Assembly (NCBI GenBank): GCA_016840855.1
Contig: JAEORO010000085.1
Span: 1 to 16,974 of the forward strand
Origin: Candidatus Thorarchaeota archaeon
GTDB taxonomy: Archaea > Asgardarchaeota > Thorarchaeia > Thorarchaeales > Thorarchaeaceae
Reading direction: 5' to 3'
DNA length: 16,974 nucleotides
Positions 1 through 16,974 of the stretch are shown here, one piece after another. Under the pieces are notes generated by a model that made no database searches, was not told the DNA's origin, and saw only the letters and a program-made list of their open reading frames with translations. A program made the translations under genes and the position numbers. Positions within the stretch are counted from its first letter, which is position 1; each line of letters begins with the position of its first letter.

Positions 1-621
1 CATCATGTAGATGTGTTAGTTCTCCCTGAGTTGGCGAATTCTGGTTATTATTTCGATTCGTATGAAGATGTGATGATGTGTTCTGAGAACATACCTTCTG
101 GTCCCCTATCGAAAGAACTAATCAAATGGTCTAAGAAGGGGGGTCTTGTTGTGGCAGGGATCAATGAATCAACGGAGAAGGGTCTTTATAACTCAGCAGC
201 AGTAATGGCAAATGGGACTCATTTGGGAACTTATCGAAAGCATCACCTTTACGGTCCTGAGAAGGAATGGTTTTTGAAAGGACCAATTGAGCCACGAGTC
301 TTTAGGTACCATGAACTTGTATTCAGTGTTGTAATTTGTTTTGAATGGAATTATCCTGAGAGAATCAGGAGTGCTGCTCAAAAGGGGTCAAAGTTAATTC
401 TTCATCCAGTAAATAGTAGCAACTATCGCTGGCGAGATGCCATGAAGACCATTGCCATCAATAACGGTGTTTTCACAGCTTCTGCAAATAGAGTTGGAAG
501 TGAAGGAGATTGCACTTTCTCTGGAGAATCATCCATCATAAATCCAAATGGTGAAATCATACTAAAAATGGATTCACAAAACCATCGGGTAGAGTGTATT
601 GATATCGAAAAAATGGCTTAA
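1..621 (+). CDS. Carbon-nitrogen hydrolase (nitrilase/amidase superfamily), 5'-truncated by the window edge
   Basis: Frame is open from base 1 (HHVDVLVLPE...), so the true start lies outside the window. Glu-Lys-Cys triad motifs are present (LPEL, YRKHHL, VICFE), plus YNSA, ANRVG and FSGESSIINPNG. Stop TAA at 619-621. Confidence 0.88.
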   Translation, partial: HHVDVLVLPELANSGYYFDSYEDVMMCSENIPSGPLSKELIKWSKKGGLVVAGINESTEKGLYNSAAVMANGTHLGTYRKHHLYGPEKEWFLKGPIEPRVFRYHELVFSVVICFEWNYPERIRSAAQKGSKLILHPVNSSNYRWRDAMKTIAINNGVFTASANRVGSEGDCTFSGESSIINPNGEIILKMDSQNHRVECIDIEKMA

Positions 622-2744: not shown

Positions 2745-3554
2745 CTAGTTTTCCTGTCCTAGTAACCGTAGCAGTGTAGCTTCACTGAGTAATCCAAGTT
2801 TCTCAGCAATTGAGTCAGATGCTTTCACAGCTAGCGATTTTCCATCCAGTTCGAATAGTGACTCTCCTCTATAGTTGGCTCTGGAGAGCTCCTCATCGCT
2901 CGGAATCATTCCGACAAGTTCCAATCCCTCAGCTTCCAACTTCATTCTAAGGTCATTCTCCATATCTGGAGGAATCCGGTTCCCAATCACAACGATCTTC
3001 TTGAACTCAATATGAACCTCCTTTGCAAGGTCTCTTATCCTCAGGGCTGCTTCATAGGCTGCTCTTGAAGGATCTACCACAATAATGAGGACATCCACGT
3101 TACGGTTTGTGCGTCTGCTTAGGTGTTCAAGACCCGCACTCATATCCATAAGTGTGATTTCGTAGTTTTGACTTAAAGTATCTAGTATCTGTGTAAGGAG
3201 TCGATTGACGTAACAATAACACCCCTCACCTTCTGTTCTTCCCATAGCTAAAAAATCAAACTTCGGATTTTCCACAAGTGCCTCGAAAATCTCTCCTTCA
3301 AGAACATCCTGCTTTGCGACTTCTCCCGAGTATGTACCATTATCAATATCTTGGCGAAGTCTAGTTGCTATTGATCCAACAGATTTTTGGACCTCAATAC
3401 CAAGCGCACGAGGGAGATTCATAACTGGGTCTGCATCAACCACAAGAAGGTCTCTTTTAGTCTTCTCAGTAACAATGCGTGTGAGAAGAGCTGATATTGT
3501 TGTTTTTCCCACACCGCCTTTGCCTGATACAGAAATTACGAGACGTTCTCTCAT
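2745..3554 (-). CDS. cooC: CooC/AcsF-type nickel-insertion ATPase (ACS-associated CooC2-like)
   Basis: Deviant Walker A GKGGVGKTT, DADP, metal-binding EGCYC, DMSAGLEHLSR. Start moved from 3581 to ATG 3554, which avoids overlap with cdhE and follows GAGGAGTGA spanning the cdhE stop. Confidence 0.88.
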   Translation of the reverse strand: MRERLVISVSGKGGVGKTTISALLTRIVTEKTKRDLLVVDADPVMNLPRALGIEVQKSVGSIATRLRQDIDNGTYSGEVAKQDVLEGEIFEALVENPKFDFLAMGRTEGEGCYCYVNRLLTQILDTLSQNYEITLMDMSAGLEHLSRRTNRNVDVLIIVVDPSRAAYEAALRIRDLAKEVHIEFKKIVVIGNRIPPDMENDLRMKLEAEGLELVGMIPSDEELSRANYRGESLFELDGKSLAVKASDSIAEKLGLLSEATLLRLLGQEN

Positions 3555-3565
3555 TCTGGTGGTTT

Positions 3566-4981
3566 TCACTCCTCTTTCCATTTGCCTTCTTGCAAATACT
3601 TTCCAATTCCACTCGAATCTCGTGGACCTACTTTTATTGTCCAGCCACTGGCTTCTTCAGTTTCACCACTGATCCTAGCTGCCATCCCTGGACTTATCAG
3701 AATCTTGTGATTTACCTTATCTGCGACCTTATATTCCTCAAGAGTTTCGGCCACTTTTTCAGCTGTGAGTTTACGACCAGCTACAGCTGATTGAACGCTC
3801 ATTCCTTCAGTATCCACTACAACCAGATAAGTATCAACACCTGCTTGTTTGATGTCGCTCTCAACTGTGAAGTAAGTGAGTGCGAAATTGGTTGTGTACA
3901 TGACTGGTGCATCCGGTCCCACAGTCCCGAATTCTTTCAATCCTGGCTCAACAGCAACGGGTTTCACAGGATCTGTATAGAGATTGCTACGAAGGAATGT
4001 CGTAGGAAGATTCGTCCACATATCCAAACTGTGCAGCACAATTAGGTCTGCATATCTTACTATGAGCGCTGATGCGGTGAGAACTTCATTCCATTTTGTT
4101 AGTTCAGGAGCTTCGCCTTCTCGATGATCCGCCCATGCTCCAATTGGTGCTGCGAGGGTAGGATAACCGAGAAGTTCATTTTCTTCGTTAATTGCAGAAC
4201 GTCTGATTTGCGTAAAATCATCGACTGTGGTTCCAAGACCTGATTTTGAGAGAGTACCTGGGTCGAGTATGATATCTTCAACCCCTAACGCTCGCAATGT
4301 ATTTACAAGTGAAGATAGATTGTCAAGACTTCCAGGTGCATATGCCACCAGCGGTAAATTGTGTTTGGCAGCAACTGTCCCAACATCGGCCCATGTGTCC
4401 AATGTTGCAGCATAGAGTAATGGTCTCCTATCCGCAATAGCATTAGCCGCAGCTGCAAGCATCTCTGGATTCAGCGAGCATAGCATTATTGGCCATTTGG
4501 TCAACTCAGTCAGTTTCTTTGCAGCAGTAGCGAAGGTCTTCGGATCCTGAGAAACGCCTCTAAGTGCAATTCCATCCAAGCTGAGGTTGGTTCCAATGTA
4601 GACATATGTCCAATCTTCTATTGCTTTCACTCTAGCTGCAAATGCCTCAGCTGCTAGGTTGTCCGGAATGTCAATGAAGAACGAAGTCGGGTTCGAGTAT
4701 CTAAGGTCATGCCTGTATAGCACGAGTTTTCCACCAACACTTTTGGCATGTTCACCAACACCGATGACAACTTCCCTTACTGGAGGTCTGACAAGTTCTC
4801 TCAGTTTTTCTAGCTTCTTGGCATACTTTGCTTCCTTAAAGAGTGGAGCACAAGCCTTCAGCTTTACAGTGTGTTCCGCCATCTTTGTTGCAAATGCCAT
4901 GCAGTTGGCTTCTCCACACTCTTGGCAATTTGTACCGGGGAGTAATGGGTAGATTTCTAATGGACCTGGTAGCTTTGCCAT
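3566..4981 (-). CDS. cdhE: ACDS gamma subunit, corrinoid Fe-S protein large subunit
   Basis: 471 aa. N-terminal LPGTNCQECGEANCMAFA...C [4Fe-4S] motif, VLYRHD, YTDP.KP, TTNFALTYFTVESD, VGPRDSS. Confidence 0.96.
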   Translation of the reverse strand: MAKLPGPLEIYPLLPGTNCQECGEANCMAFATKMAEHTVKLKACAPLFKEAKYAKKLEKLRELVRPPVREVVIGVGEHAKSVGGKLVLYRHDLRYSNPTSFFIDIPDNLAAEAFAARVKAIEDWTYVYIGTNLSLDGIALRGVSQDPKTFATAAKKLTELTKWPIMLCSLNPEMLAAAANAIADRRPLLYAATLDTWADVGTVAAKHNLPLVAYAPGSLDNLSSLVNTLRALGVEDIILDPGTLSKSGLGTTVDDFTQIRRSAINEENELLGYPTLAAPIGAWADHREGEAPELTKWNEVLTASALIVRYADLIVLHSLDMWTNLPTTFLRSNLYTDPVKPVAVEPGLKEFGTVGPDAPVMYTTNFALTYFTVESDIKQAGVDTYLVVVDTEGMSVQSAVAGRKLTAEKVAETLEEYKVADKVNHKILISPGMAARISGETEEASGWTIKVGPRDSSGIGKYLQEGKWKEE

Positions 4982-4982
4982 T

Positions 4983-6173
4983 TCATGTCCCCTCCGGTAT
5001 AGAAAGTGTGGTCCAATCCGGATACTCCTCCGGTTTGACCTGTCTTTTTTCTTTCATCCAATCAACAAGATCATGTAAGGTCTTGATGGCCGCTGGATGC
5101 ATCATCATGAAGAGATCATTTCCTGCAAGTAAAAGCGCGAGAGCAGTGACACTTTCCCAAATTGGTCCTCTCAGCTCTCTTGGACCTAGTTCAGGATTAT
5201 TCAACCAAGCTTCTCTTGCAGCCCACGCATTGGTGGTTCCTGAGCTAATCGGAAAACGAAGTTCATCATCACCAAGCAAACCAGCGAGACGCATTCGTTG
5301 CATGATTGTAAATGCATACTCCAGACCATATCCTAAAGCTGCTGTTGTAGGATCTATGACAATTTGTTCTGGTGTCAACCATTCAAAGAGTCTTCGATTT
5401 AGTTCCTTCTGCTGGTTGATGTCAATTGATGTCCAAGATAACACAACTTGGTCATGTTTCTTTGCTGCAATAGCGATATCCTCGTAAACATCAACAGTTG
5501 CAGAACATAGGAGTGTTCTCTCTCCTTCACAGACTTCCGCAGCTTTGGCTAAAACAGATCCATCCTTCTCAGGGTCACCTGCTGAACCAATGAGGATGGG
5601 AACTTTAACCGCCTGCAATACTTCCTCGATTGTTTTTGCGGCATCGTTAGGTGACGTGTCACCGAGTTGACGGTCAGTGCTAATCAAGTGAAGTGTGACT
5701 ACATCAGCTCCAAACTTATCTACCACAAGCTTCGCCCATGCTGCTGGATCATCAAGAACCTCTTTGTAGTGCATTTTTACTGCCTTTGCTAATGATATGG
5801 GCATATCAAATACATCAGCTGCTACAATAGGTGGATGTTTTGGAGGTGCTTGAAACAGATCCCATGCCGGGGCAGTGTGTCCTCCGATTGTCACTGTTTT
5901 GTTTCTTGTGCCTCCTTGCCCTTTAGTAGCTCCAAGAGTAATCTCTTGGATACTCTTTGTGTATTTCCCTATGGGAGGTGTAAATGAGGCTGGGATTAAT
6001 GATTTTGGCATCTCAAGAGCTGGACGTGCTACAGCTTTTGCTACCTGTTGTACCATAGGACGTAGCGCCAACTTGAGCTCATCAAGTTCTATAGTGACAT
6101 TCTCAAGGATAAGTTCAGCAAAATCGCCGAACATATCATCCAGCGATGTGGTCCTTTCCTTGTCGGTTGTCAT
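4983..6173 (-). CDS. cdhD: ACDS delta subunit, corrinoid Fe-S protein small subunit
   Basis: 396 aa. GGTR..TVTIGG, DVFD, HLISTD, DPTTAALGYGLEY, TTNAWAAREAW, MMMHP. ATGA overlap with the cdhC stop at 6170-6173. Confidence 0.96.
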   Translation of the reverse strand: MTTDKERTTSLDDMFGDFAELILENVTIELDELKLALRPMVQQVAKAVARPALEMPKSLIPASFTPPIGKYTKSIQEITLGATKGQGGTRNKTVTIGGHTAPAWDLFQAPPKHPPIVAADVFDMPISLAKAVKMHYKEVLDDPAAWAKLVVDKFGADVVTLHLISTDRQLGDTSPNDAAKTIEEVLQAVKVPILIGSAGDPEKDGSVLAKAAEVCEGERTLLCSATVDVYEDIAIAAKKHDQVVLSWTSIDINQQKELNRRLFEWLTPEQIVIDPTTAALGYGLEYAFTIMQRMRLAGLLGDDELRFPISSGTTNAWAAREAWLNNPELGPRELRGPIWESVTALALLLAGNDLFMMMHPAAIKTLHDLVDWMKEKRQVKPEEYPDWTTLSIPEGT

Positions 6174-7576
6174 TTCTTCTTGTCACCTTTTCCTGTTCTT
6201 CGGATGATTACCTTCTCGGCGTAGATCTTTGCGTTCTTGAAGATGATTTCAAGTCCTCCTCCTACACCTCCGACATAGGCTGTCATCTCACCCGGAACCG
6301 CCATATAATCAGTTCCTGCTTCATCCGTAGCCATGGCTGCTTCATCAACTTCCTCTAGCTCAACCCATCGTTGTGCTACAGGATGGTTATTCTGTTTGAG
6401 AAATGTTTTGAGGTCTCCAATACTCATGACTTCTTTTTCAGTTGGGATTTTATCCCTTATCTCCTCTGGAATAAAGTCACTGACTCGATCTTTGATAACC
6501 TCTGGCATCCAAACAATACGGTTCCATCCATCGTCAACTTGTAAGAACTTGGGAGATCGCATATATTCAATCGAGATGCCATGGAATCCCGGAACTTGGC
6601 GACCTCCGGCTGTTGAATCTGCCATACTCGAGAATGGTAACCCGTTGACCGTATCTCCTTTGAAGTCTCTATGTACAATTCCCAAGCCATCCACTTCTGG
6701 TATGACGAACGCAATAGCTTCGAAGCAACCACAACTTGTGTGTGGCTTCTCAAATGCACTGTAAAGTGAAACTGAATTCACCTTACCAAGCGATTTCTCT
6801 GTATATGCTTGATTAACTCCTTCATATTCGCCACGATACTCATCAATTGTTGCACCTTTTGGAATTGCGTATAGTGGACCTTTTGGATCAACTCGTGCAG
6901 CGGCTCTCCCATCAAACCAACTAATTGCACCACAGTTCGCGTACCGTTGTGGTGTGATTGTACAAACATGAGTGGGAGCGAATGACTGACATAGTGAACA
7001 CCCGTAGAACGTATCTACTTCTGCGTCAGTGAGTCCTCGAGCACGCTCATCTCGCTGGTTGTATCTGTTAATCGCATCATCGTACCGTTCTTCAACAACT
7101 TTCGGGTCTGTAATGAAGGTTACCTGAATCTTTTCTATGATGTTCATCTCAGTCTTGAAAAGTCGTATCAGAACTCGGCCTAAGAACTCGAAAGAGTTGA
7201 AACCCTTCTCAAACGATTTCTTGCTGAGTCTAATCCAGATATCGTAACGCTGGTTGAGATGCATCATTCCCTCTACAAAGTTGACGTACTCATGGATACG
7301 TCTTTCAATTACCCCTTCAAGGTCTGGTTCAATCTCTTTTCCAGCTACTTCCACAACTATTCCAAGAGGATGATAGCTTCCTTCCTCCATATCCTTAAGG
7401 TCCGGACCAATTATTGTGATCTTTTCATCCTCGACATCACCCATTTCTCGGGCAATTGCTAGTTCGAATTTTTGCTTCATATTTGGTCCACCGAGTTCGA
7501 CAAACATATCTTTGCCACGAACTCGCTCACCTTCATATACAACACCAATATCTACAGGAATGTCTTCAAATGACAA
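6170..7576 (-). CDS. cdhC: ACDS beta subunit, acetyl-CoA synthase (archaeal short form, A-cluster)
   Basis: 468 aa, TTG start. YEGERVR, MHLNQR, A-cluster motifs FYGCSLCQSFAPTHVC, CGAI and HTSCGCFE. Confidence 0.97.
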   Translation of the reverse strand: MSFEDIPVDIGVVYEGERVRGKDMFVELGGPNMKQKFELAIAREMGDVEDEKITIIGPDLKDMEEGSYHPLGIVVEVAGKEIEPDLEGVIERRIHEYVNFVEGMMHLNQRYDIWIRLSKKSFEKGFNSFEFLGRVLIRLFKTEMNIIEKIQVTFITDPKVVEERYDDAINRYNQRDERARGLTDAEVDTFYGCSLCQSFAPTHVCTITPQRYANCGAISWFDGRAAARVDPKGPLYAIPKGATIDEYRGEYEGVNQAYTEKSLGKVNSVSLYSAFEKPHTSCGCFEAIAFVIPEVDGLGIVHRDFKGDTVNGLPFSSMADSTAGGRQVPGFHGISIEYMRSPKFLQVDDGWNRIVWMPEVIKDRVSDFIPEEIRDKIPTEKEVMSIGDLKTFLKQNNHPVAQRWVELEEVDEAAMATDEAGTDYMAVPGEMTAYVGGVGGGLEIIFKNAKIYAEKVIIRRTGKGDKKK

Positions 7577-7577
7577 T

Positions 7578-8126
7578 TTACTTACCGCCTCCTACGAGTT
7601 CAAGAATTTCGTCAAGAGATTCATGATACTGTTTCTCTTTCATGTTTGGGAAAGACCACTTTGCGTGGGGTTGATAATATCTTCCGAGAGCAATCGCCAC
7701 AATGTGTGGTGCAAAATTCATTACACCAGATAGCATGGTCCATTGCATATAGTATGGCTGGCCATATATCAATATCATATCATAGGGTCCTGTGCCATGA
7801 GGTCCTTTCCAATCTGGGTCTTGAAGTCTATATGCAAGCTCCATAGCTCCCATTGATTTTGCTCCATCAAAACCTCTCTCAATGAATGCTTTAATGGCCC
7901 CGCCTGTTGCAATCACAGGAATCTTACCAGCTCTAGAGAGGGCAATCGCGTAATCTACCATGTTTCCTTTCCCATGTTTTTCATTAGGTGCTTCTGAGCC
8001 AACAATTAGAAGTGGCTTCTTGGCTTTTGATAGGTCTCGTTTGAGAACATCTGGTTTCGAGAGAGCTTTAGCACTATCAGGGCCGCATATCTCTCCAGTT
8101 TGCCACGGAACAGGCTTCATTACCAT
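7578..8126 (-). CDS. cdhB: ACDS epsilon subunit
   Basis: 182 aa. AKKPLLIVG, LQDPDWKG, YYQPHAKWSFPN. Lies between cdhA and cdhC. TAATG overlap with the cdhA stop, preceded by a GGAGGTG Shine-Dalgarno-like sequence. Confidence 0.94.
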   Translation of the reverse strand: MVMKPVPWQTGEICGPDSAKALSKPDVLKRDLSKAKKPLLIVGSEAPNEKHGKGNMVDYAIALSRAGKIPVIATGGAIKAFIERGFDGAKSMGAMELAYRLQDPDWKGPHGTGPYDMILIYGQPYYMQWTMLSGVMNFAPHIVAIALGRYYQPHAKWSFPNMKEKQYHESLDEILELVGGGK

Positions 8127-10468
8127 TACTTTCCACCTCCAATGATTTGCTCCTTTAGGAGTGTCGGATCTGGTATCCTTCTCTCCTTCCAGTTGTGCTC
8201 CTTCATTTGAGTCAGAATCTTGTCTTTCAACGTGATTGGAATATCTGTGTCACGTCTTATGTATCGCCAGACATCTTCTGGGAAGAAGCCATAGTACTTC
8301 TCATGAACATCGATGTAGTGGCTCAGTTTGATGGAACGACCTTTGCCAGTGTCATTTGGTCGAAGAACAAGTTTTGCAGTCATTACATTTGCTTCAGCAA
8401 CAGTTTCTGCTGCATAGAAGAGATGTTCAGGACCCGGTGCTGTTACGACCCTATCTCCGGTTCGAGCATCATAGACTGTCCAGTCCCGTTCTTCTTCCGC
8501 CTTTCCGAGCAGCATTCTCCGGTATTTCGAACCATGTGGTCCCACAATCACAGGAACTCCAAGTCTCCAGAATCCTGCTGCTATAGATGCGGCTTTTTGT
8601 GACATCGCGCCCCAAGATATACCAACAGCTCCCACACGATTATGGATATAGTCAGCAATCTCCGCATAATTACCACGTAGATTTCTTTTAGCAAAAATCG
8701 CTGCAATCTTTATTGCTGCTCCAGCAATATGAGAGTTCGAAACACATGAGCCAACATTGACAACGCCACCAGCATCAAATTCACCTGTCCTTCTCTCATA
8801 GATGGACTGACCATTTTCATCTTTAACATGTCCAGCTGAAATCGCTGCGCATCCTGATGTCACAATGATGTAACGTCGCTTAGCGAACTCTTCAGCCATA
8901 TCGTGGACATCTTGGCCTCCACCTGGATAGTTAGCACATCCAACATGGGCAATGACTCCAGGAATCTCGCCGAATACAATTGGTTGCCCAACATTTCTAA
9001 TTTCAGTGTCTTGAATGGCTCCACGTCCAGTTCTCACCATGTGAGTTTCTTCTTTACAGTCTGCTTCTGCTGCTGCCACCATCCAGCTGTGCAAATCATA
9101 ATCATTCGGGCAAGCTGATTCGCAGCGTGCACAACCTATACAATTATGATAGACTTCTCGCAGGGGTTCAAAATTCCCAACTTGCGCCGCTAAGACTGCT
9201 TCCATAACATTCTGGTCATTTGGACATGCTCTAATACACTCACTGCATTTCTTGCATTCCTCAGCCATCTTTTGAATCTGTTTTTTAGATGGGAAAAACT
9301 TCATCTTTCTTCTCTTTGGTTTTAAAGCAAGAGCGACCTTAGTTGCAATCTCTCCCACAATTCTATGGTCCGGGATATAGGCACCTGGTATTTTTCCAGA
9401 AACAAGTTCCTCTACAATTGAGTCTGGGTCGTCATCCGATCTGTCAGGCAATCCCATTACTGCCTTATCACTTGTCGAGATGACAGGAGCTTTGACCTTT
9501 TTCGCCTCTCTCACAACGTCAGTTCGGACACATTGTTCGTCTACGACGATAACATCTGCTTTTCCGCTTCTGATGAATCTGAGTTGCCAAGAGATTGGGC
9601 CTACAACCTTTGCTTTTGGATCACGACGTGTGATATCCCAAGCAGTGCAACACATCCCACCTACTTCAGCGACTTCATGAAGTCGCTTTTCAGTTATGTA
9701 GTCAGTAATAGAGGCTGCCGGGACAATGTTGTGCCCAATTGTCAAAATGATGGCCTTATTTGTGTCCATCATACCAATTCCTGACTCAACCAGTGGAGCA
9801 TCTGGGTCTGCTTGTGGCATTCCTAGAGTGGAAATCTGTGCAAGATCTGCTATCTCCATGCTTAACTGGTCAATCATCCCTGCATGGAACACCTTGCTCT
9901 CGAAGTCCATCCAGTTCCCTTCTTGACCTGTTGCAGTCGCAGATAGAGTGTGGGTCATTTGGGTTTCACAGTAGTCGAGGATAATGCTTGCATCTTCTAA
10001 TGTTCGAGGACGCATTCCTGTGACTAAACGTGCAACAGGTGCATGTATCTCAGTACCGGGTCCTTGAATAAGTTCAGTTCTGGGCCCATACTCTTCTATC
10101 AGATGGTCTATCAGATGACGTGAGTGGGCTAAATGTGCTGAGCAACCTATATTAGCTGCAGCCAGTACAATTCTTGCTTGCTGACCTTTTATATCGAGTC
10201 CGCATGCGCCCCTTCTATCACCAGATAGATCGCATTTGCCCATTGTACATAAACAGCATACCTGACAGTATGGCATGTATGATGGTTGATATTTCGTCAA
10301 AATTTTATGATCCCATGAACGAAGAGTGGTTGGTCCTGGCATTGGGGTTGGTCCCATGGGTTCATCCCATTCATCGTCAACAATAGTGCCGATTCGGACC
10401 TCAAGCCCTTTGAATTTGCCAATTCCAGTGTCTGCTTCGTCCGCTCTGAAGTAAGCTTTCTTCTTCAT
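8126..10468 (-). CDS. cdhA: ACDS alpha subunit, archaeal Ni-CO dehydrogenase
   Basis: PMGPTP.P; B/D-cluster CQVCCLCTMGKC..CG; C-cluster ligand motifs GHN, GMCCT, DEQC, GCAN, SGC and GSCVSN; SQKA; E/F clusters CKKCSECIRACP and CIGCARCESACP. ATG 10468 is preferred to TTG 10510 because a TATA-like element lies at ~10517-10525. Confidence 0.97.
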   Translation of the reverse strand: MKKKAYFRADEADTGIGKFKGLEVRIGTIVDDEWDEPMGPTPMPGPTTLRSWDHKILTKYQPSYMPYCQVCCLCTMGKCDLSGDRRGACGLDIKGQQARIVLAAANIGCSAHLAHSRHLIDHLIEEYGPRTELIQGPGTEIHAPVARLVTGMRPRTLEDASIILDYCETQMTHTLSATATGQEGNWMDFESKVFHAGMIDQLSMEIADLAQISTLGMPQADPDAPLVESGIGMMDTNKAIILTIGHNIVPAASITDYITEKRLHEVAEVGGMCCTAWDITRRDPKAKVVGPISWQLRFIRSGKADVIVVDEQCVRTDVVREAKKVKAPVISTSDKAVMGLPDRSDDDPDSIVEELVSGKIPGAYIPDHRIVGEIATKVALALKPKRRKMKFFPSKKQIQKMAEECKKCSECIRACPNDQNVMEAVLAAQVGNFEPLREVYHNCIGCARCESACPNDYDLHSWMVAAAEADCKEETHMVRTGRGAIQDTEIRNVGQPIVFGEIPGVIAHVGCANYPGGGQDVHDMAEEFAKRRYIIVTSGCAAISAGHVKDENGQSIYERRTGEFDAGGVVNVGSCVSNSHIAGAAIKIAAIFAKRNLRGNYAEIADYIHNRVGAVGISWGAMSQKAASIAAGFWRLGVPVIVGPHGSKYRRMLLGKAEEERDWTVYDARTGDRVVTAPGPEHLFYAAETVAEANVMTAKLVLRPNDTGKGRSIKLSHYIDVHEKYYGFFPEDVWRYIRRDTDIPITLKDKILTQMKEHNWKERRIPDPTLLKEQIIGGGK

Positions 10469-10516
10469 GCTACGTTCAGTTCCTGTGCGTGGTAGAGTGG
10501 TCGGACGCAAATAGCC

Positions 10517-10539
10517 ATAATAAGCTTGTGAATTTCACA
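10517..10539 (-). promoter_or_regulatory. Putative archaeal promoter of the cdh operon with an adjacent palindromic operator
   Basis: Minus strand reads TGTGAAATTCACA-AG-CTTATTAT. A perfect 6-1-6 inverted repeat (10527-10539) abuts a TATA-like CTTATTAT about 50 nt upstream of the cdhA ATG. Confidence 0.45.
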
Positions 10540-10595
10540 TTTTTTTCAAATGATTGATTCGTAATCAAAAATTAACCATTCAAATCCACATGTTT

Positions 10596-10611
10596 AAGAA
10601 AGTAAACAAAA
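10596..10611 (-). terminator. Possible U-rich archaeal terminator after the upstream cooC
   Basis: Minus strand TTTTGTTTACTTTCTT about 35 nt after the stop at 10646. May simply be AT-rich intergenic DNA. Confidence 0.25.
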
Positions 10612-10645
10612 TCTTACTTATATTTTCATAATGAAATTTCAGTTA

Positions 10646-11443
10646 TTAACTGTTAGTTTCTTCGATTATGCGTTTTTTAATCTCGCGTATTGCAAGCATT
10701 CCTCGTGAATTGGGGTTTAAATCAATTGGTGCTATGCCTTTTCGATCAGCTTCCTTAATTGTATCATCCAATGGGACAATACCCAAAAGTTGAACTTCCT
10801 CTCTCTTCACCCACTCCTTTATCATATCTTCATCATCGGATGTTGCTACTTTGTTTCCAATAGCTAAAACTTGTCCGACATCAATGTCCTGAGCGAGTGT
10901 TCTTATCTTACCAAGGATGTCAAGTGAACGTCTACCTGGTTCGGCTACAACCAATAGTGCATCCATTCCTCTGGTTGTGCCACGTCCGAGATTCTCGATA
11001 CCTGCATCCATATCCATCACAAAAGCCTCATCAGTTCCGAGAATAAGGTGACGCATAAGGGTCTTTAGAAGAGTTGCTGAGGGGCACATGCACCCAGACC
11101 CGCCAATATCAACGGTCCCTGCCACCAAAAGGCTTACATTATCAGGACCTTGGATAGCAAATTTCTCTGCGAGATCATCAACCCTTGGGTTAAGTTTGAA
11201 GAAACCACTATATCCTTCAGCTCCCTTAATTTGCAGTCTTTCTTCAACAAGTTTTTCATTTTCCGTCAATGGCACAATCTTCATGGCTACCTCTCTCGGA
11301 ATACCCAAGGCTGACCAAAGTGTGTAGCTTGGATCTGCATCGACTGCGAGTATTTTGAGTCCATCTCTACCAAGTAGTCTCGCTAATGTTCCAGCGATGG
11401 TGGTCTTTCCAACTCCACCCTTTCCTGCTACTGCGATCTTCAT
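10646..11443 (-). CDS. cooC: CooC nickel-insertion ATPase (CODH-associated CooC1-like)
   Basis: 265 aa. MKIAVAGKGGVGKTT, DADP, FKLNPRVDD, GGSGCMCP, DMDAGIENLGRGT, EPGRRS, GNK. Confidence 0.92.
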   Translation of the reverse strand: MKIAVAGKGGVGKTTIAGTLARLLGRDGLKILAVDADPSYTLWSALGIPREVAMKIVPLTENEKLVEERLQIKGAEGYSGFFKLNPRVDDLAEKFAIQGPDNVSLLVAGTVDIGGSGCMCPSATLLKTLMRHLILGTDEAFVMDMDAGIENLGRGTTRGMDALLVVAEPGRRSLDILGKIRTLAQDIDVGQVLAIGNKVATSDDEDMIKEWVKREEVQLLGIVPLDDTIKEADRKGIAPIDLNPNSRGMLAIREIKKRIIEETNS

Positions 11444-11459
11444 TTAGCCACGCTCATTT

Positions 11460-12656
11460 CTATGTCATTTGACTACGTACAATCTCGTGCAATCTCTGTA
11501 AAACAGCAATCAGTGTTTCATCATCCCTAGATGCTTTCCATTTCTTGAACTCGATTTTATTCATGTCTAATCTCTTCATGCTTCCAGAACCTGAGATAAT
11601 AGGATCCGTTGTATGGATCGATACAGCCGCTCTTTCATCCGTCAATCCACCTGGTGGCCCAACATACACTATCTTTGTTTTTGTGAGTGCCCTTGCAGCA
11701 GGTCCTGGTAGTTTTGTTAATACATCATCGCCGACTATTAGAGTAGTATCAAACTCTCCTGCTGCTAGTTTCTGCAGTGAATCTACTCTAATTTTATGTT
11801 CCTGAACTAATTGGGTTACCCCCATAGTATTAGACTGCACAAACATTGGAAGAGCAAATGCGTCTTTCCCAGCTGCTCGTAATGTTGCAATTAGCTTGGT
11901 TATTCCTGAGAGGTTAGCGTCATGATTTCCAGAGTTAATCACACCTCCTCCATAGAAAATTATAATGCAATCAACCTTTTGCAAGCCTTTAACAAAGCCT
12001 ATCAATTCACTTGCAGGAATGCCTAATACCTTGGATTTGATTGCTGATCTGCCATCAAGCTCTGAAATAATAGTATCCAAAAGCTCTGCATCTGACCCAA
12101 TTGGAATAATGAGTCGATGGTTCGCCATTTTCATTGTTTCAGTTTGGCGAACATCAACTACTCCAATTGTTCGACTTTCAATACCTTCTGGTATCTTTTT
12201 ACCACGAGGCAAGACCGCAAACCTACTAGGGTGCCGGTGAAGACTTTCAGAAGGATTTGTACCCCAATATATGATGAATTCACCATTATTACGAACATAC
12301 TCAAGATCAATGTCGAGCCCACTCGTATGAATACCTTGTGACATTACTTGCAGAGGACCTAGTTCAGCGCTCGAACCAAAATGGCCCTTAAGAGTTGTTG
12401 CAAGGTCAAGTCCTTCCTTGACAGCCTCGTTCGTTGCATAGGTCCAACCAAATAGTAGTAAACTGTTTGCACTCGTAAGAATACTTGCCGCCTTCTCTAG
12501 CTTCCTCTCATTTGGCTCAATCTTGCTCGCTATAGCTGTTTCCAGATGAACCTGTCCTAGTCTACATAATCCTAGTGAGTTGATGTTTTTTCCTGATACT
12601 TCTGCTACTACGTCATCACAGAGCAAGGAACAACCATTGCAGACAATACTTTCCAT
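11460..12656 (-). CDS. Formylmethanofuran dehydrogenase subunit B-like protein (FwdB/FmdB family), predicted catalytically inactive
   Basis: 398 aa from ATG 12656, preceded by AGGTG. FwdB hallmarks: CNGCSLLCDD...CRLG, IIYWGTNP.ES..RH.SR...PRG, VVDVRQTET.KMA, IFYG.G and GSMKRLD. The CHGP and MRGH.N motifs are replaced by ELGP and MFVQSN. Confidence 0.82.
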   Translation of the reverse strand: MESIVCNGCSLLCDDVVAEVSGKNINSLGLCRLGQVHLETAIASKIEPNERKLEKAASILTSANSLLLFGWTYATNEAVKEGLDLATTLKGHFGSSAELGPLQVMSQGIHTSGLDIDLEYVRNNGEFIIYWGTNPSESLHRHPSRFAVLPRGKKIPEGIESRTIGVVDVRQTETMKMANHRLIIPIGSDAELLDTIISELDGRSAIKSKVLGIPASELIGFVKGLQKVDCIIIFYGGGVINSGNHDANLSGITKLIATLRAAGKDAFALPMFVQSNTMGVTQLVQEHKIRVDSLQKLAAGEFDTTLIVGDDVLTKLPGPAARALTKTKIVYVGPPGGLTDERAAVSIHTTDPIISGSGSMKRLDMNKIEFKKWKASRDDETLIAVLQRLHEIVRSQMT

Positions 12657-12666
12657 TAAGAAACAC

Positions 12667-13125
12667 CTACCAAATTTCAATCGCGTCAGTGCAGCAGTAT
12701 TGTTCGCATACCCTACAGTTCAACCTATCAGGCGGAAATCTCCGACACTTCTCAAGATTGATAATTTTAGATATGCCATTCTCAACCCTAAATACTGTGT
12801 CTTTACTCATTGCAGCTTTACCTTCACTTGTTGGAGGTTCAGTAGCAACATCCACGGGACATACAACAACACAATTGTTACAACCTGTGCATTTGTTCTC
12901 ATCGAGTTTGATTCCCGTTGCTTCTGCAGTGAGCATTGGAGTAACCATTTCTCTGATTTTAGTATAATTCTTCTCAAAACCTAATTCAAGGAGTGGAGGA
13001 CACTCATCAGGTGAAATGTCTCCGAGAGCTAACTTGGTAGCGAAAGCCATACAGGTCTTAGGTGCGCATTGTCTGCAGTTAGTTTTCGGCAATAGATTAT
13101 ATAGATCCATTGGGTTCAATTTCAA
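12667..13125 (-). CDS. Fe-S protein: CdhE/RnfB-type N-terminal Fe-S domain fused to an FwdG-like 2x[4Fe-4S] ferredoxin
   Basis: LLPKTNCRQC...CMAFA...ECPPL, then CTGCNNCVVVCP and C-x9-CRVCEQYCC. Likely start is TTG 13125 (GGAG 10 nt upstream); ATG 13110 is an alternative. The ORF-track start at 13194 runs into the divergent promoter region. Confidence 0.8.
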   Translation of the reverse strand: MKLNPMDLYNLLPKTNCRQCAPKTCMAFATKLALGDISPDECPPLLELGFEKNYTKIREMVTPMLTAEATGIKLDENKCTGCNNCVVVCPVDVATEPPTSEGKAAMSKDTVFRVENGISKIINLEKCRRFPPDRLNCRVCEQYCCTDAIEIW

Positions 13126-13290
13126 GATTAAGGGACTCCGTCGTTTTTCTTCTAAATTATTCTTCAGATTTTCATTGTGCACACGCCACAACAATTATCC
13201 GTTACGGTATGGACTTCTAAATACTACATTAGGACAGATTTATTGAATTTCACTCATCATGAAATCCGTCAAAATAATTACAGGAGACAC
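13126..13290. promoter_or_regulatory. Divergent promoter region between the Fe-S/fwdB-like/cooC unit and the hdrA-mvhD/fwdF unit
   Basis: AT-rich gap between head-to-head genes. TATA-like ATTTATT at ~13238-13244 is directly followed by TGAATTTCAC (13244-13253). AGGAG at 13282-13286 precedes TTG 13291. Confidence 0.5.
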
Positions 13291-15738
13291 TTGAGTCCAT
13301 TGAAGTCTAACTCTCAATCAGAATCAGCCAATAATGAGAGCGATAAGGTTGCTGTGTTCCTGTGTAAATGTGGATCAAATATTGCTGGACCAATAGACAT
13401 TGACGCTCTTAAGGAACGAGTGATGTCACGAGGGGTAGCAGTTGTTGAGATAATGGATCATCTATGTTCTGATCATGGTGTTAATGATCTAACTTTGGCA
13501 ATTCGTAAAAGTGGGGCTGAAAAAGTTGTCATTGCTGGTTGTACGCCACTTCTACATAAGGATCTCTTCAGCAATGCTGTTCGTCAAGCTGGAATCGACC
13601 CTGGCCATCTTCATATAGCAAACATACGTGAGCAGTGTAGCTGGGTACATAGCGACGACCGTGAGGCTGCAACATCGAAAGCTGCCACCATTATTGATAT
13701 TGGTTTGGCTGAAGTAGGTTTTTCTAATCCGACTAAGACCTATGAGTTGCCTGTAGTCCGCCGAGCAATGGTAATTGGAGGAGGAGTTGCAGGAGTAACT
13801 GCAGCTCTGGAACTCGCGGATCAAGGCATTGAAACAGTTCTCGTTGAGAAAGAAGCTTTTCTAGGAGGTCATATGGCAAAATGGGACAAGCTCTTTCCCA
13901 CCTTTGATTGTAGTATTTGTATTCTCGGTCCGATGATGGCAAGAGCCGCAAATCACTCTAGTATTCAGTTGATGGCACTTACAGACATAAAAGAAATCAA
14001 GGGCAGTACAGGACGATATTATGTGACATTGACTCAACGCCCCAGATACACTTCTACCGATTTATGTACTGGCTGCAATAGGTGTGTCGAAGTCTGTCCT
14101 GTTGATGTTATAGATGAATACAACTATGGTCTTGGTACGAGAAAGGCAATCGTACGGCATTCACTTGATGCCGTTCCTATTGCTCCGTATATTGATATGG
14201 ATAATTGTGTGGGTTGCCAGTCCTGTAGTGGAGTTTGCGAGGCGAAAGCCATACGATATGACGATTGTGAAAAAACTATCTCACTTGAAGTGGGTGCTAT
14301 CATAGTAGCTACAGGATTTCGCCCATTTGATGCTACTGCCGTGGAAGAGCTCGGTTATGGTGAAAATCCCGATGTCATCACATCCGTTGAACTCGAACGC
14401 CTCATTAATCCCTCGGGACCAACAGGTGGAAAGCTCGTAAGACCCTCCAATGGAAAAACTCCACGCAGTGTTGTGTTTGTAAACTGTGTTGGAAGCAGGA
14501 CTGCACGATTCAATCGACTATATTGCAGCCGAGCTTGTTGTGCGGAAGCAGTGAAACAATCTATCCAAGTTAAAGAGAACTATCCTGATTGCAGCGCTTA
14601 TGTTTTCTATACTGATCTTCGAACTGTCGGGAAAGGACACGAAGAGCTATATGTTCGAGCTGCAAATGAATACGGTATCCAATTTATTCGAGGCGCTGTA
14701 GGTGAAGTTGTCTATGACCCAGTGAAATGCAAATCCTTTGTAAGAGCAGAAGACACGCTTCTCAGGAAACTGATTGAGTTCGAAGTTGATTTAGTTGTTT
14801 TGATGGTAGGTATGGATCCCTCGCCAAGCAACAAACATCTGTCTAAACTTCTTAGAATTCCGTTGGATGAGAATGGTTTCTTCCTAGAGCAACATCCAAA
14901 ACTGAATCTAAGTGGAACCGCTTCGATGGGAATATTCCTTGCAGGCGTTTCGCAGGCTCCCAAAGACATCTCTGATACGGTCGCGCATGCAGGTCTTGCA
15001 GCCTCAAAGGTGAAGACTCTTCTAACAAGTAGTATGATTGTAACTGATATCAGCGTACCAACAATAGACCATGAAAAATGCATAAACTGCTTGCAATGCC
15101 AACAGGTTTGTGCTCCGAATGCAATCCGTTCAATTAATGGAGGAAAACCAGTTATCACTCAAGCAGCATGCAGAGGTTGCGGCGCTTGTGTTGCGGTCTG
15201 TCCAACTGATGCCCTTGATTTACCAAGCCTGACAACAGAGCAATTGATAGCAGCAACAAGGAGTGCTGTGCGGTTTAGTGGATCAAAACCAACTATAGTT
15301 GGCTATCTATGTAGATGGTGTGCGTACTCTGCAGCTGACCGGGCAGGAATGACAAGATTAACGTATCCTGTCAATATTCTACCTATCCAAGTGCCCTGCA
15401 CAGGCCGCCTTGATACTGAGATATTATTAACCGCCTTCGAAGAGGGTGCTGATGGAGTTGCTGTAATTGGTTGCCACGTTCAAGACTGTCACTATCGCTC
15501 CGGTGCCTTAAATGCACAAGTACGTACCGGAAATTTGAGAACGGTTTTGGAAGCAGCTGGAATTGATAGCAGACGTTTGTACTTTGGAAGTGTGTCTGCT
15601 TCCGAAGCAAGCGAATACGCTAAACAAATCACTGAGTTTACCAAGAACATCATTTCTCTTGGGCCCCTTGGAAGTGAAGCTACTATAAAAACAAAAAGAA
15701 ATCCCAGAAAGCCAGCGAAAAAGGATGTACTGAAATGA
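13291..15738 (+). CDS. hdrA: Heterodisulfide reductase subunit A fused to a C-terminal MvhD ([2Fe-2S]) domain
   Basis: 815 aa from TTG 13291. FLCKCGSNI, AGCTP, NIREQCSWVH, FAD motif GGGVAG, DKLFPTFDCSIC, inserted and C-terminal 2x[4Fe-4S] domains, ELERL, CVGSR, YCSRACC...K, PKDI. From ~15286 the MvhD motifs LCRWCAY.AAD, PCTGR and GCH..DCHY appear. Confidence 0.94.
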   Translation: MSPLKSNSQSESANNESDKVAVFLCKCGSNIAGPIDIDALKERVMSRGVAVVEIMDHLCSDHGVNDLTLAIRKSGAEKVVIAGCTPLLHKDLFSNAVRQAGIDPGHLHIANIREQCSWVHSDDREAATSKAATIIDIGLAEVGFSNPTKTYELPVVRRAMVIGGGVAGVTAALELADQGIETVLVEKEAFLGGHMAKWDKLFPTFDCSICILGPMMARAANHSSIQLMALTDIKEIKGSTGRYYVTLTQRPRYTSTDLCTGCNRCVEVCPVDVIDEYNYGLGTRKAIVRHSLDAVPIAPYIDMDNCVGCQSCSGVCEAKAIRYDDCEKTISLEVGAIIVATGFRPFDATAVEELGYGENPDVITSVELERLINPSGPTGGKLVRPSNGKTPRSVVFVNCVGSRTARFNRLYCSRACCAEAVKQSIQVKENYPDCSAYVFYTDLRTVGKGHEELYVRAANEYGIQFIRGAVGEVVYDPVKCKSFVRAEDTLLRKLIEFEVDLVVLMVGMDPSPSNKHLSKLLRIPLDENGFFLEQHPKLNLSGTASMGIFLAGVSQAPKDISDTVAHAGLAASKVKTLLTSSMIVTDISVPTIDHEKCINCLQCQQVCAPNAIRSINGGKPVITQAACRGCGACVAVCPTDALDLPSLTTEQLIAATRSAVRFSGSKPTIVGYLCRWCAYSAADRAGMTRLTYPVNILPIQVPCTGRLDTEILLTAFEEGADGVAVIGCHVQDCHYRSGALNAQVRTGNLRTVLEAAGIDSRRLYFGSVSASEASEYAKQITEFTKNIISLGPLGSEATIKTKRNPRKPAKKDVLK

Positions 15739-16974
15739 GTAAGGCGCGGATAACAGTTGGTGAGAAACCAGTCATCACGATGGATCTCATTGATGGTACA
15801 ATAAAATATGTCTGGAAGACTTCGCTTCTTACAAAAACTCTTGACTATTCGATCGACAAGTGTGTTGGATGCAATCTTTGCTTGTATTGCCCTTGGGATG
15901 CAATTACGATTGGACCTGTAGCTGAAACAGCTGCAGGAAGAATTGAAGGCGCACCTCTCATTAATATTGATCCTGATCTATGTACATTCTGCGGGCTCTG
16001 TGACTCAGCATGCATATTTAGAGCCTTCGCTACAAAATACGAGGGCGAGCAATCTGTAAATGACTATAATCGTGTATCAGGAACGCATGAGATTGACCAC
16101 AATAAGTGTGCTCCTTGCCTCTTATGCGCAAAGGTTTGTCCTACCAATGCCCTTGAAGTTAAGGTCGAAGTCGAGAAGAAGAAGAATCTAGTGACCTACA
16201 AGGAAGAACCACACGCAATTGGTAGCATAAAGTTGAATGAAGACAAATGCTCCTATTGCGGATTATGTGAGCTTCTATGTCCCGAAGTATTCACAATCTT
16301 CTGGTCAGATTCCGCAGAACCTCCTGAATTCAAACCTGCAGCAGCTATTAGAATGGAAGAGAAGGAATGTGACTACTGCAAGCTCTGCGAGAAGATATGT
16401 CCAGATGATGCTATAGAAGTCACATGCCTTGAAGCAAGTGCTCGTATTATTGAAGATCTAAAGATTTCTGGCAAGTTAAAGCAGAGTGATATTGCTTGTG
16501 TCAAATGTGGTCTCTGTGATCAAGTTTGCCCCTATGATGCAATCGAGGTTTCAAAGCCCTTCTCAGGAGAAGTTCAAATAAAGAAACTCGAGAAATGTGA
16601 TCCGATTGGATGTCACAACTGCTTCAATATCTGTCCGGTAAAAGCGATTTATCCAACTGGAAAGGAAGATAAGATCGCAATACTTGACCATTGCGTTTAT
16701 TGTGGCGCTTGTGCGAATTCTTGTCCATATGACGTTCTCGAAGTTGTACGAGAAGGCTACAATGTTGAAATGTTGGAGGAAGCTCGAGAATGGGAACGAG
16801 GCAGGTCAATATTCTTCAATGAGGTAGTCGGAAAAGAGCATCCTCCTAGTGGACTATTTGAGAGAAATTTAATCCTACGCGCTGAAGAAATTCAACCTGG
16901 CAACATGAAAGCGCTTAGTGCTTGGAAATCCATTGATGGCAATCGAAAAAGAGCTATGGCAATAGCAAAGAAAC
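15735..16974 (+). CDS. fwdF: FwdF/FmdF-like polyferredoxin (8 ferredoxin-type Cys motifs), 3'-truncated by the window edge
   Basis: Not in the ORF track; translated by hand. ATG 15735 overlaps the hdrA stop (ATGA) and the frame stays open for 413 codons. Motifs: CVGCNLCLYCP, CTFCGLCDSAC, CAPCLLCAKVCP, CSYCGLCELLCP, CDYCKLCEKICP, CVKCGLCDQVCP, CDPIGCHNCFNICP, CVYCGACANSCP. FwdF-like IGPV and VSKPFSG segments are present. Confidence 0.88.
   Translation, partial: MSKARITVGEKPVITMDLIDGTIKYVWKTSLLTKTLDYSIDKCVGCNLCLYCPWDAITIGPVAETAAGRIEGAPLINIDPDLCTFCGLCDSACIFRAFATKYEGEQSVNDYNRVSGTHEIDHNKCAPCLLCAKVCPTNALEVKVEVEKKKNLVTYKEEPHAIGSIKLNEDKCSYCGLCELLCPEVFTIFWSDSAEPPEFKPAAAIRMEEKECDYCKLCEKICPDDAIEVTCLEASARIIEDLKISGKLKQSDIACVKCGLCDQVCPYDAIEVSKPFSGEVQIKKLEKCDPIGCHNCFNICPVKAIYPTGKEDKIAILDHCVYCGACANSCPYDVLEVVREGYNVEMLEEAREWERGRSIFFNEVVGKEHPPSGLFERNLILRAEEIQPGNMKALSAWKSIDGNRKRAMAIAKK

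Follow-up and report, generated by a model that had tools for sequence, protein, structure and literature searches.

The genome of a Candidatus Thorarchaeota archaeon (assembly GCA_016840855.1) contained, on contig JAEORO010000085.1, a gene for a degenerate paralogue of the B subunit of formylmethanofuran dehydrogenase (Fwd), which we call FwdB*. The window analysed here is the whole of this contig, 16,974 nt, and FwdB* is the 398-aa product of positions 11460-12656 on the minus strand. It has the fold of FwdB and an N-terminal [4Fe-4S] site, and it has neither the Cys-His pair nor the Arg-Gly-His motif of the active site. Because these residues are lost, FwdB* is most likely unable to reduce CO2 or to oxidize formate. 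FwdB* is a stable paralogue under selection and not a product of recent decay. We think it rather probable that it serves as a non-catalytic, [4Fe-4S]-bearing subunit of an electron module which was derived from heterodisulfide reductase (Hdr) and Fwd components and is tied to CO dehydrogenase/acetyl-CoA synthase (CODH/ACS).

The four cysteines of the cluster motif (Cys6, Cys9, Cys13 and Cys31; CX2CX3CX17C; codons at 12564-12641, minus strand), which belong to the MopB N-terminal domain, were intact in the translation and in every covering row of the family alignment. Residues 95-101 (12354-12374, minus strand) read SSAELGP where canonical proteins read ..SVCHGP, the site of the metal-ligand Cys/Sec and the catalytic His, and residues 270-276 (11829-11849, minus strand) read PMFVQSN in the place of PMRGHYN, which carries the catalytic Arg. 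In the HMMER alignment to solved FwdB chains (5t5i_B, 8rja_B) "SSAEL--GP" stood opposite "TASVCHGP", with a 2-residue gap at Cys-His, and "PMFVQSN" stood opposite "PMRGHYN". The catalytic residues of Methanothermobacter wolfeii FwdB are given as Cys118, His119 and Arg288 (PMC6926001). The loop that follows PMFVQSN was about 17 residues shorter than the canonical one: the segment N276-D303 was 28 residues long, whereas that of the genome's canonical copy has 45, and the equivalent segment had 24-29 residues in 120 of 121 family rows. A first-pass annotation, made from the letters of this DNA, had already reported the intact cysteines, both altered motifs and a shortened stretch after the second; the motif positions, calculated by us from the ATG at 12656, coincided exactly with those it gave.

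The reading frame of FwdB* was open throughout and contained no in-frame UGA, as had been noted before. A hidden selenocysteine was rejected, as there were no in-frame stop codons at all. An AGGTG core lay 7 nt 5' of the ATG and overlapped the stop codon of the upstream ferredoxin gene, so the earlier description of an intact gene preceded by a Shine-Dalgarno sequence holds. The longer frame proposed by the open reading frame (ORF) finder, with a TTG start at 12680, was rejected, since it overlaps the upstream gene and the homologues begin at the ATG ("ME.IVC"). Promoter and terminator scans of 10400-13400 gave signals no better than those of shuffled sequence, and the 20 sequencing runs listed (6 studies; sediment, estuary, mangrove and soil metagenomes) were all DNA, with no RNA among them.

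In a phmmer search against the PDB sequences, FwdB* matched FwdB chains only (8rja_B, 2e-27; 5t5i_B, 3e-27). It scored 199.7 bits on the NCBIfam equivalog TIGR03129, below the cut-off of 327.8, and thus lies outside that equivalog; the canonical FwdB of the same genome scored 521 bits. There was no Pfam match at E <= 1e-3, and PF00384 reached 14.1 bits against a gathering cut-off of 24. PF00384 performs poorly throughout the FwdB branch: even the canonical FwdB of this genome has just 24.7 bits. The canonical copy, whose presence elsewhere in the genome the first-pass annotation had proposed to check, was found on another contig in a fwdD-fwdB-fwdA cluster, with SSVCHGP and PMRGHYN intact. The genome had also a third MopB-type gene (C144:37198-39426), whose product is a full-length MopB protein of 805 aa that includes a PF01568 domain.

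The family of FwdB* was assembled from the query and the best 120 of 178 homologues found by a word-indexed search (121 rows). These 120 were 51-92% identical to the query, their named hosts were metagenome-assembled genomes (MAGs) of Thorarchaeota, Sifarchaeia, Hodarchaeota or "Promethearchaeota", and they were annotated at source as "hypothetical protein" or "formylmethanofuran dehydrogenase subunit B". Cys6, Cys9, Cys13 and Cys31 were kept in 110/110, 110/110, 113/113 and 115/115 covering rows. The Cys-His dipeptide was found in 0/121 rows and the Gly-His of the second motif likewise in 0/121; an Arg within residues 271-275 occurred in 2/121, and any Cys within residues 90-105 in 1/121. The first-pass annotation had held that close orthologues which all retained Cys-His-Gly would imply recent decay only; as none of the 121 rows retained Cys-His, the loss is not recent. 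The residues that replace Cys-His vary inside the family (G-P, G-L, G-A, E-Y), and long near-invariant blocks peculiar to the family are present, for example residues 118-180.

Purifying selection on the orthologues, another check proposed earlier, was evident. Pairs of FwdB* genes from related genomes had ratios of nonsynonymous to synonymous substitution rates (dN/dS, Nei-Gojobori) of 0.138 at dS 0.19 and 0.137 at dS 0.60, and of 0.06-0.11 at dS >= 0.9, where saturation begins. The frame was intact in 42 genomes of the window's family and in 18/19 Hermodarchaeota genomes. In one genome the FwdB* match (G328:C64:10954-12177) had a single in-frame TAA, which may be a decaying copy or an assembly error. 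In another, which had no cdhA match (G368:C1:1582451-1583002), residues 1-171 alone were matched, which may likewise reflect decay or assembly error.

The fold is that of FwdB. An AlphaFold2 (AF2) model built with a 142-row alignment had a predicted local distance difference test score (pLDDT) of 96.1 and a predicted template modelling score (pTM) of 0.92; a single-sequence AF2 run gave pLDDT 35 and was discarded. The top Foldseek matches of the model were 8rja_B, 5t5m_B, 5t5i_B and 7bkb_H (template modelling score (TM) 0.89-0.90, E 6e-32 to 6e-29), and further behind were FdhH (TM 0.74), FhcB (0.66) and NuoG (about 0.6). All three domains of the FwdB fold were present in the model. The profile of the 142-row alignment matched 5t5i_B at 1e-160 and FhcB 6s6y_B at 1e-30. 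By its fold match and by profile matches to formate dehydrogenase and NuoG, FwdB* belongs to the MopB / dimethyl sulfoxide reductase superfamily.

When the FwdB-like proteins from the loci were aligned, three states could be distinguished. Canonical FwdB has both Cys-His and Arg-Gly-His. Proteins of Thermoproteota, distant Asgard lineages and Methanolobus keep Cys-His and mostly keep Gly-His, and none of them has the Arg. In Hermodarchaeota (Glu-Tyr at the place of Cys-His) and Thorarchaeota (Gly-Pro, Gly-Leu etc.) both motifs are lost. The column equivalent to Arg288 had Arg in 0/33 rows of the second and third states together, which we call the Arg-less group. The cluster cysteines are common to the canonical, Cys-His-bearing and degenerate proteins.

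A quick IQ-TREE tree (43 rows, LG+C20, support by the Shimodaira-Hasegawa-like approximate likelihood ratio test (SH-aLRT) only, rooted on canonical FwdB) gave SH-aLRT values of 100 for canonical FwdB, 100 for the Arg-less group and 99 for a degenerate clade of Thorarchaeota and Hermodarchaeota. The Arg-less group, the degenerate clade included, stood apart from canonical FwdB. The degenerate clade was nested (99) among Cys-His-bearing proteins of Thermoproteota, so that a single loss on one branch, at the base of Thorarchaeota and Hermodarchaeota, would suffice. The closest Cys-His-bearing relatives of this clade were found in Thermoproteota MAGs and not in the other Asgard lineages sampled. 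Because the degenerate proteins are placed nearest to Thermoproteota proteins, the tree hints that the whole module may have been transferred between phyla. A FastTree tree of 121 rows, of which 105 were full-length representatives from a library of 1.8 billion proteins, agreed in outline with the IQ-TREE tree. In these rows, a biased sample collected with a degenerate query, 54/121 were without all five residues of the two motifs and 6 were fully canonical. Cluster-keeping FwdB-like proteins with neither Cys-His nor Arg-Gly-His were numerous in this biased sample and fell into several separate clades.

The loss was also traced column by column. Columns in which 85% or more of 17 canonical FwdB rows agree were compared with 10 Cys-His-bearing, 6 Hermodarchaeota and 17 Thorarchaeota rows. 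Twenty of these columns, including the Arg288 equivalent, were lost across the Arg-less group. Eight were lost only in Thorarchaeota and Hermodarchaeota: A38, C111, H112, G282, H283, G298, D359 (at the end of the "IDP" strand) and D409, in the numbering of the genome's own canonical FwdB. On PF00384 the canonical and the Cys-His-bearing proteins scored about 25 bits; the score was 14 bits in Thorarchaeota, and Hermodarchaeota gave no match.

The FwdD-like partner changed together with FwdB*. Canonical FwdD and the FwdD-like proteins encoded beside Cys-His-bearing genes have in common "R-T-x-x-Q-G" near the N-terminus and "G-P-W-A-N". The FwdD-like proteins of Thorarchaeota and Hermodarchaeota (FwdD*) have instead "A-[RH]-S-F-E-x-D" or "A-R-A-L-D-V-D", and "GPWAL" or "GPWAF". 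These losses occurred in exactly the lineages in which FwdB* has lost Cys-His, and the FwdD-like ORFs were intact and conserved. By analogy with MopB domain IV, these motifs may touch the pterin dinucleotide.

The gene directly upstream of FwdB* (12667-13119, minus strand, listed also as 12667-13194; stop 10 nt before the FwdB* ATG) encodes a three-cluster ferredoxin, "Fd175" (PF04060 and Fer4), with twelve Cys invariant across 20 orthologues. Its N-terminal iron-sulfur (FeS) domain is of the CdhE/RnfB type, closest in the PDB search to the N-terminus of the large subunit of the corrinoid iron-sulfur protein (CoFeSP; 9fzy_F, 4e-11) and to RnfB, and its C-terminal 2x[4Fe-4S] part is FwdG-like (profile matches to FwdG 9sfi_U, 2e-13, and 5t5i_G, 3e-12). 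Divergent from the ferredoxin/FwdB* operon, a gene at 13177-15738 (plus strand; FlpD and FAD/Fer4 Pfam domains) encodes an 853-aa HdrA-MvhD fusion, with full HdrA (8rvu_a, 2e-169; 5odc_A, 2e-168) and MvhD (5odc_D, 3e-31) in the PDB sequence search. It is followed by the gene for a FwdF-like polyferredoxin (15735-16974, plus strand), of which 413 aa with six CX2CX2CX3C motifs lie in the window. The best PDB matches of the polyferredoxin were 9sfi_T (3e-42), FmdF 7bkb_K (1e-39) and FwdF 5t5i_F (5e-39), with MvhB at just 1e-26.

The end of the contig interrupts the polyferredoxin gene, the rest of which lies on another contig, C47. The last 31 nt of the window (16944-16974) were identical to the first 31 nt of C47, the frame stayed open, and on C47 the protein ended with a C-terminus like that of its relatives; the two contigs evidently adjoin at a k-mer-sized assembly break. 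On C47, convergent to the polyferredoxin gene, lies the 132-aa FwdD-like gene (110-508, minus strand; PF01568, 43.3 bits against a cut-off of 26.8). The module thus contains homologues of HdrA, MvhD, FwdF, FwdG, FwdB and FwdD. No fwdA, fwdC, ftr or fdhB was found near FwdB* in the window or in 20 related loci.

Downstream of FwdB* the minus-strand row continued, and every gene between 13194 and 2745 was on this strand. A CooC-type P-loop NTPase of the Ni-insertion accessory family (10646-11443, CbiA/ParA/NifH-type Pfam domain) follows 16 nt after FwdB*. The archaeal CODH/ACS genes and a second cooC-like gene occupy 2745-10510: cdhA (8126-10510; TIGR00314, 1085 bits), cdhB (7578-8126), cdhC (6170-7576), cdhD (4983-6173), cdhE (3566-4981) and the cooC-like gene (2745-3581), with cdhA-E assigned by the NCBIfam set TIGR00314, TIGR00315, TIGR00316, TIGR00381 and NF003195. 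The 135-nt gap between cooC and cdhA (10511-10645) was the sole sizeable intergenic space in the row, and the start codon given for cdhA was TTG. The next gene downstream after the cdh operon, 790-2673 (minus strand), encodes a 627-aa acetyl-CoA hydrolase/CoA-transferase (PF02550, PF13336) with a C-terminal GNAT acetyltransferase domain, and the same fusion gene followed the second cooC in loci L037 and L041.

This arrangement was conserved. We sampled 20 loci of up to 20 kb in other Asgard genomes and located the window proteins by tblastn. Further members of the Arg-less group were sought with single proteins, which reach close relatives only, so its taxonomic range is at least that reported here. 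In 11/11 Thorarchaeota loci the order ferredoxin-FwdB*-CooC was followed by cdhA and accompanied by the divergent HdrA-MvhD gene, and the polyferredoxin gene was present in 10/11, the eleventh contig ending first. All five Hermodarchaeota loci had ferredoxin, FwdB*, CooC, HdrA-MvhD and polyferredoxin, with cdhA inside the fetched stretch in 4/5. The order ferredoxin-FwdB*-CooC was therefore common to 16/16 loci of the two lineages. Ferredoxin, FwdB-like protein, HdrA-MvhD and polyferredoxin occurred together in 3/4 more distant Asgard loci, the fourth (Helarchaeota) having FwdD-like and FwdB-like genes alone, and a FwdD-like gene was found in 19/20 Asgard loci, the exception being a 6-kb contig. 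The four-gene module was also present in 3/3 loci of Thermoproteota MAGs (one isolate labelled "Kor3"), with cdhA-cdhB adjoining in two of them (L055 and L056). Two loci of Methanolobus MAGs (L058 and L081) had the order ferredoxin, Cys-His-bearing FwdB-like, FwdD-like, and no hdrA was found in their fetched flanks.

Across genomes, FwdB* went together with cdhA. In 86 genomes of the window's family, FwdB* was scored by a best E <= 1e-50 to the query and cdhA by TIGR00314 at E <= 1e-50; both were found in 41 genomes and neither in 39. This means that cdhA was present in 41/42 genomes with FwdB*, and FwdB* in 41/46 genomes with cdhA. The one genome with FwdB* and no cdhA was G368, the one with the 171-residue match, and among the five with cdhA and no FwdB*, three had a cdhA match touching a contig end. 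By genus, both were present in 5, cdhA alone in 1 and neither in 10. Matches at the level of canonical FwdB (E about 1e-17 to 1e-28) persisted in several genera that had no cdhA. The distribution of FwdB* thus tracks cdh and not fwd.

The complex of FwdB* with the ferredoxin was predicted from the 142-row FwdB* alignment and a 20-row ferredoxin alignment, in three runs with three controls. The interface score ipSAE was 0.92, 0.92 and 0.91 in the runs, and 0.00 in the best control. The runs passed the mark for this score, as did 58 of 80 solved complexes but just 2 of 110 mismatched pairs in its calibration; with own alignments these counts apply only approximately. The runs shared 100% of their contacts, with partner pLDDT >= 84. 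The predicted interface comprised FwdB* residues 13, 15-17 and 25-35 (around Cys13 and Cys31), that is, the cluster domain, and ferredoxin residues 77-86, 111-116 and 140-145 (around Cys77, Cys80 and Cys142), which form two cluster loops. Complexes of FwdB with FwdG have been solved, and the high score, which may reproduce them, indicates likeness to such pairs and not binding.

Comparison with known systems helps to place FwdB*. The closest analogue of a protein that kept the cluster and lost the pterin is NuoG/Nqo3, whose C-terminal MopB-like domain carries no pterin and in some bacteria keeps the [4Fe-4S] cluster N7, which is structural and lies off the main pathway. It is distant from FwdB* (TM about 0.6) and is fused into a larger subunit. 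FwdB* resembles FwdB/FmdB (5t5i_B, 8rja_B, 7bkb_H) in its fold, in its N-terminal four-Cys motif and in module partners homologous to FwdG, FwdF and FwdD. It differs from them by the absence of Cys/Sec-His and Arg-Gly-His, by the shorter loop, by a TIGR03129 score below the cut-off, by its place in the separate Arg-less clade, and by its linkage to cooC-cdh without fwdA or fwdC neighbours. In methanogens, electrons of low potential that arise from bifurcation at HdrA are described as passing straight to Fmd by way of the polyferredoxin FmdF (PMC13580544).

The first-pass annotation had cited FhcB of methylotrophs as a precedent for a B subunit without cofactor, and this stands in part. FhcB (6s6y) is also derived from FwdB, no longer has the Cys, His and Arg of catalysis and is reported to serve as a scaffold; however, the [4Fe-4S] domain and the FwdD partner, both of which are kept in the FwdB* system, are missing from it as well (PMC6926001). 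The match of FwdB* to FhcB is weaker than that to FwdB in both fold and profile, and the partners are Hdr and Cdh proteins instead of FhcA, FhcC and FhcD (fhcA, fhcC, fhcD/ftr context). The closest idea in print is a 2025 proposal that "Molybdop", a MopB-family protein without the ligand Cys encoded in hdrABC-mvhD-fdhB clusters of ANME-2/3 and Methanosarcinales, is a structural subunit of a bifurcating complex (PMC12054007). As described there, Molybdop groups close to FdhG/FhcB and has FdhB (F420) and HdrBC as partners, whereas FwdB* is of the FwdB type, has FwdG-, FwdF- and FwdD-like partners and stands beside CODH/ACS. FwdB* has no fdhB or hdrBC neighbours in the window or the related loci and its best matches are FwdB and not FdhA/FdhG, so it probably falls outside the Molybdop clade, a placement made without a joint tree.

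The fwdG2B2D2 genes of Methanosarcina, named by Rohlin and Gunsalus, are reported as fwdG-fwdB-fwdD without A and C, constitutive and of unknown role (PMC2838876). Their gene order is that of the two Methanolobus loci, the Methanolobus proteins being members of the Arg-less group with Cys-His. One study notes some FwdB/FhcB hits without the Cys and, in the text available, nothing further about them (PMC10100899). In the openly available main texts searched, including PMC11237513, PMC11291895, 10.1101/826495, PMC10100899 and PMC7325909, we found no description, for Asgard archaea, of a FwdB-like and a FwdD-like protein encoded together near cdh and hdrA-mvhD; supplements and subscription papers, which were outside this search, may hold one.

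The simplest account of these data is the following. The ancestor would have been a FwdBD-type redox enzyme, wired to HdrA-MvhD through FwdF- and FwdG-like proteins and encoded beside the CODH/ACS genes, and it would already have been unlike FwdB, as it had no Arg. The active site would have been lost in the ancestor of Thorarchaeota and Hermodarchaeota, and selection would have retained the protein as a subunit that bears a cluster and has a structural or relay role. The present module, which is encoded head-to-head and partly in a shared operon with cooC-cdhABCDE, would then be built from the redox parts of the methanogen Hdr-Fwd supercomplex. The cluster domain of FwdB* would dock the FwdG-like ferredoxin, and FwdB* would be a non-catalytic end-piece or adaptor, either an electron relay or a cluster-bearing scaffold. 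It would tie the HdrA/polyferredoxin wire to CODH/ACS, the evident candidate among its neighbours now that the terminal enzyme is gone; contact might be made through the ferredoxin's CdhE-type FeS domain. The proposal of the first-pass annotation, a structural or electron-relay subunit rather than a CO2 reductase, fits the residue losses, the selection, the canonical copy and the FwdB fold, and the Hdr-, FwdF- and FwdG-like context with cdh gives substance to the electron-relay idea.

Several points weigh against this interpretation. Thirty-three of the columns conserved in canonical FwdB were kept in all three other groups, FwdB* included, among them W131-G132-x-x-P135, H142, D168-x-R170-x-T172, D189, G236/G238, N276, G279, D303 and R362-x-D364, some of which we assume to be possible dinucleotide-binding positions. 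Because structural and ligand-binding roles cannot be distinguished for these columns, they speak against confidence that there is no cofactor, and FwdB* could still bind pterin or another nucleotide. An intact and conserved gene for a FwdD-like cap is still present, a partner that FhcB, the B subunit without cofactor, no longer has. FwdB* of the Thorarchaeota loci was 54-73% identical to the window protein, against, in the same loci, 79-91% for the ferredoxin, 73-88% for CooC and 83-94% for CdhA, and thus evolves faster than its neighbours. Within the window and related loci the module had no HdrBC or hydrogenase gene; both are encoded elsewhere in the genome, with 38 domain matches to HdrB/D-type CCG proteins and two [NiFe]-hydrogenase large subunits. 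If the cluster of FwdB* is the last in the chain, it may lead nowhere and be purely structural. The evidence for contact with CODH/ACS is synteny and co-occurrence, and the co-occurrence was counted in related genomes, which are non-independent samples, and in MAGs, which are incomplete.

The kept columns also bear on another explanation, that FwdB* still holds a W/Mo-bis-pterin whose metal has no protein ligand (water, oxo or sulfido instead) and, together with the FwdD-like cap, catalyzes a redox reaction other than that of CO2/formate. Arsenite oxidase is an enzyme of this ligand-free kind. The 20 conserved columns at which the whole Arg-less group, its Cys-His-bearing members included, differs from FwdB suggest another ancestral substrate, and the FwdD-like partner scores well above the PF01568 cut-off. 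But the losses are concerted, with Cys, His, Gly-His and Asp359 gone from FwdB*, and "RT..QG" and the Asn of "GPWAN" gone from the FwdD-like protein, in the same lineages; the active-site loop is shortened, PF00384 fades, and a new active site is expected to be conserved, whereas the replacements of Cys-His vary. We therefore consider a ligand-free enzyme unlikely. It is also quite unlikely, though it overlaps with the electron-module interpretation and sequence alone cannot separate the two, that FwdB* is an accessory factor of CODH/ACS which, with the ferredoxin and CooC, provides very low-potential electrons for cluster maturation or for reductive (re)activation of the corrinoid protein. 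Its place upstream of cdhA, between cooC and a ferredoxin with a CdhE/CoFeSP-type N-terminal domain, the constant gene order in both lineages and the co-occurrence with cdhA would all suit such a factor. However, Cys-His-bearing relatives were found with HdrA-MvhD and polyferredoxin where cooC and cdh are not adjacent (we name here L051, L054 and the Methanolobus loci L058/L081, the last with the flanks described above), and an ATPase-coupled activator domain is absent.

It seems very improbable to us that FwdB* can take the place of B in the canonical Fwd complex and so turn this complex into an Fhc-like hydrolase which releases formate instead of CO2. FhcB is such a case (PMC6926001), and in a proteobacterial MAG (L073) a cluster-keeping FwdB-like gene without Cys-His adjoins a fwdA homologue. 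This gene (14848-16035, plus strand) lies downstream of a canonical fwdDBA set and has just 81 bits to FhcB 6s6y_B, which is not close. Against such a subunit, fwdA, fwdC and ftr were near FwdB* in 0/20 loci, the canonical cluster has its own B subunit, and FwdB* tracks cdhA across genomes and not canonical FwdB. A decaying pseudogene, or a recent functionless loss in one lineage, is hardly credible. The faster evolution of FwdB*, the TAA in G328 and the partial match in G368 could be read in this way, but the frames are intact in both lineages, dN/dS is about 0.14, the family-specific blocks are near-invariant, and the loss is common to two class-level lineages.

A more far-reaching form of the electron-module interpretation is doubtful as it stands, and we offer it tentatively. 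Thorarchaeota and Hermodarchaeota may have taken over the entire redox half of a Hdr-Fwd supercomplex of methanogen type (HdrA-MvhD, a FwdF-like nanowire, a FwdG-like ferredoxin and FwdB/FwdD) to supply CODH/ACS with electrons through a fixed connection, with the CO2-reducing pterin site erased, FwdB* and FwdD* as the docking adaptor and the CdhE-type FeS domain as the plug. Low-potential electrons from flavin-based bifurcation would in that case arrive at the CO2/CO site or at the corrinoid protein with no free ferredoxin in between. The ancestral form of the module, still catalytic, would be represented by the relatives with Cys-His from Thermoproteota, Freyarchaeota, Jordarchaeia, Helarchaeota and Methanolobus.

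The view of Asgard archaea as acetogens dependent on H2 or organics is based in large part on gene lists that count every "fwdB" match as a CO2-reducing enzyme. About half of the genomes of this Thorarchaeota family carry a second "FwdB" that very probably does not reduce CO2. The series from canonical FwdB, through Arg-less proteins with Cys-His, to fully degenerate ones, with FwdD decaying in parallel, is a natural example of the change from enzyme to pseudo-enzyme inside a complex. CODH/ACS of Asgard archaea needs electrons of very low potential, and the cdh-locked module of HdrA-MvhD, polyferredoxin and FwdG-FwdB*-FwdD* would be a concrete candidate for their source.

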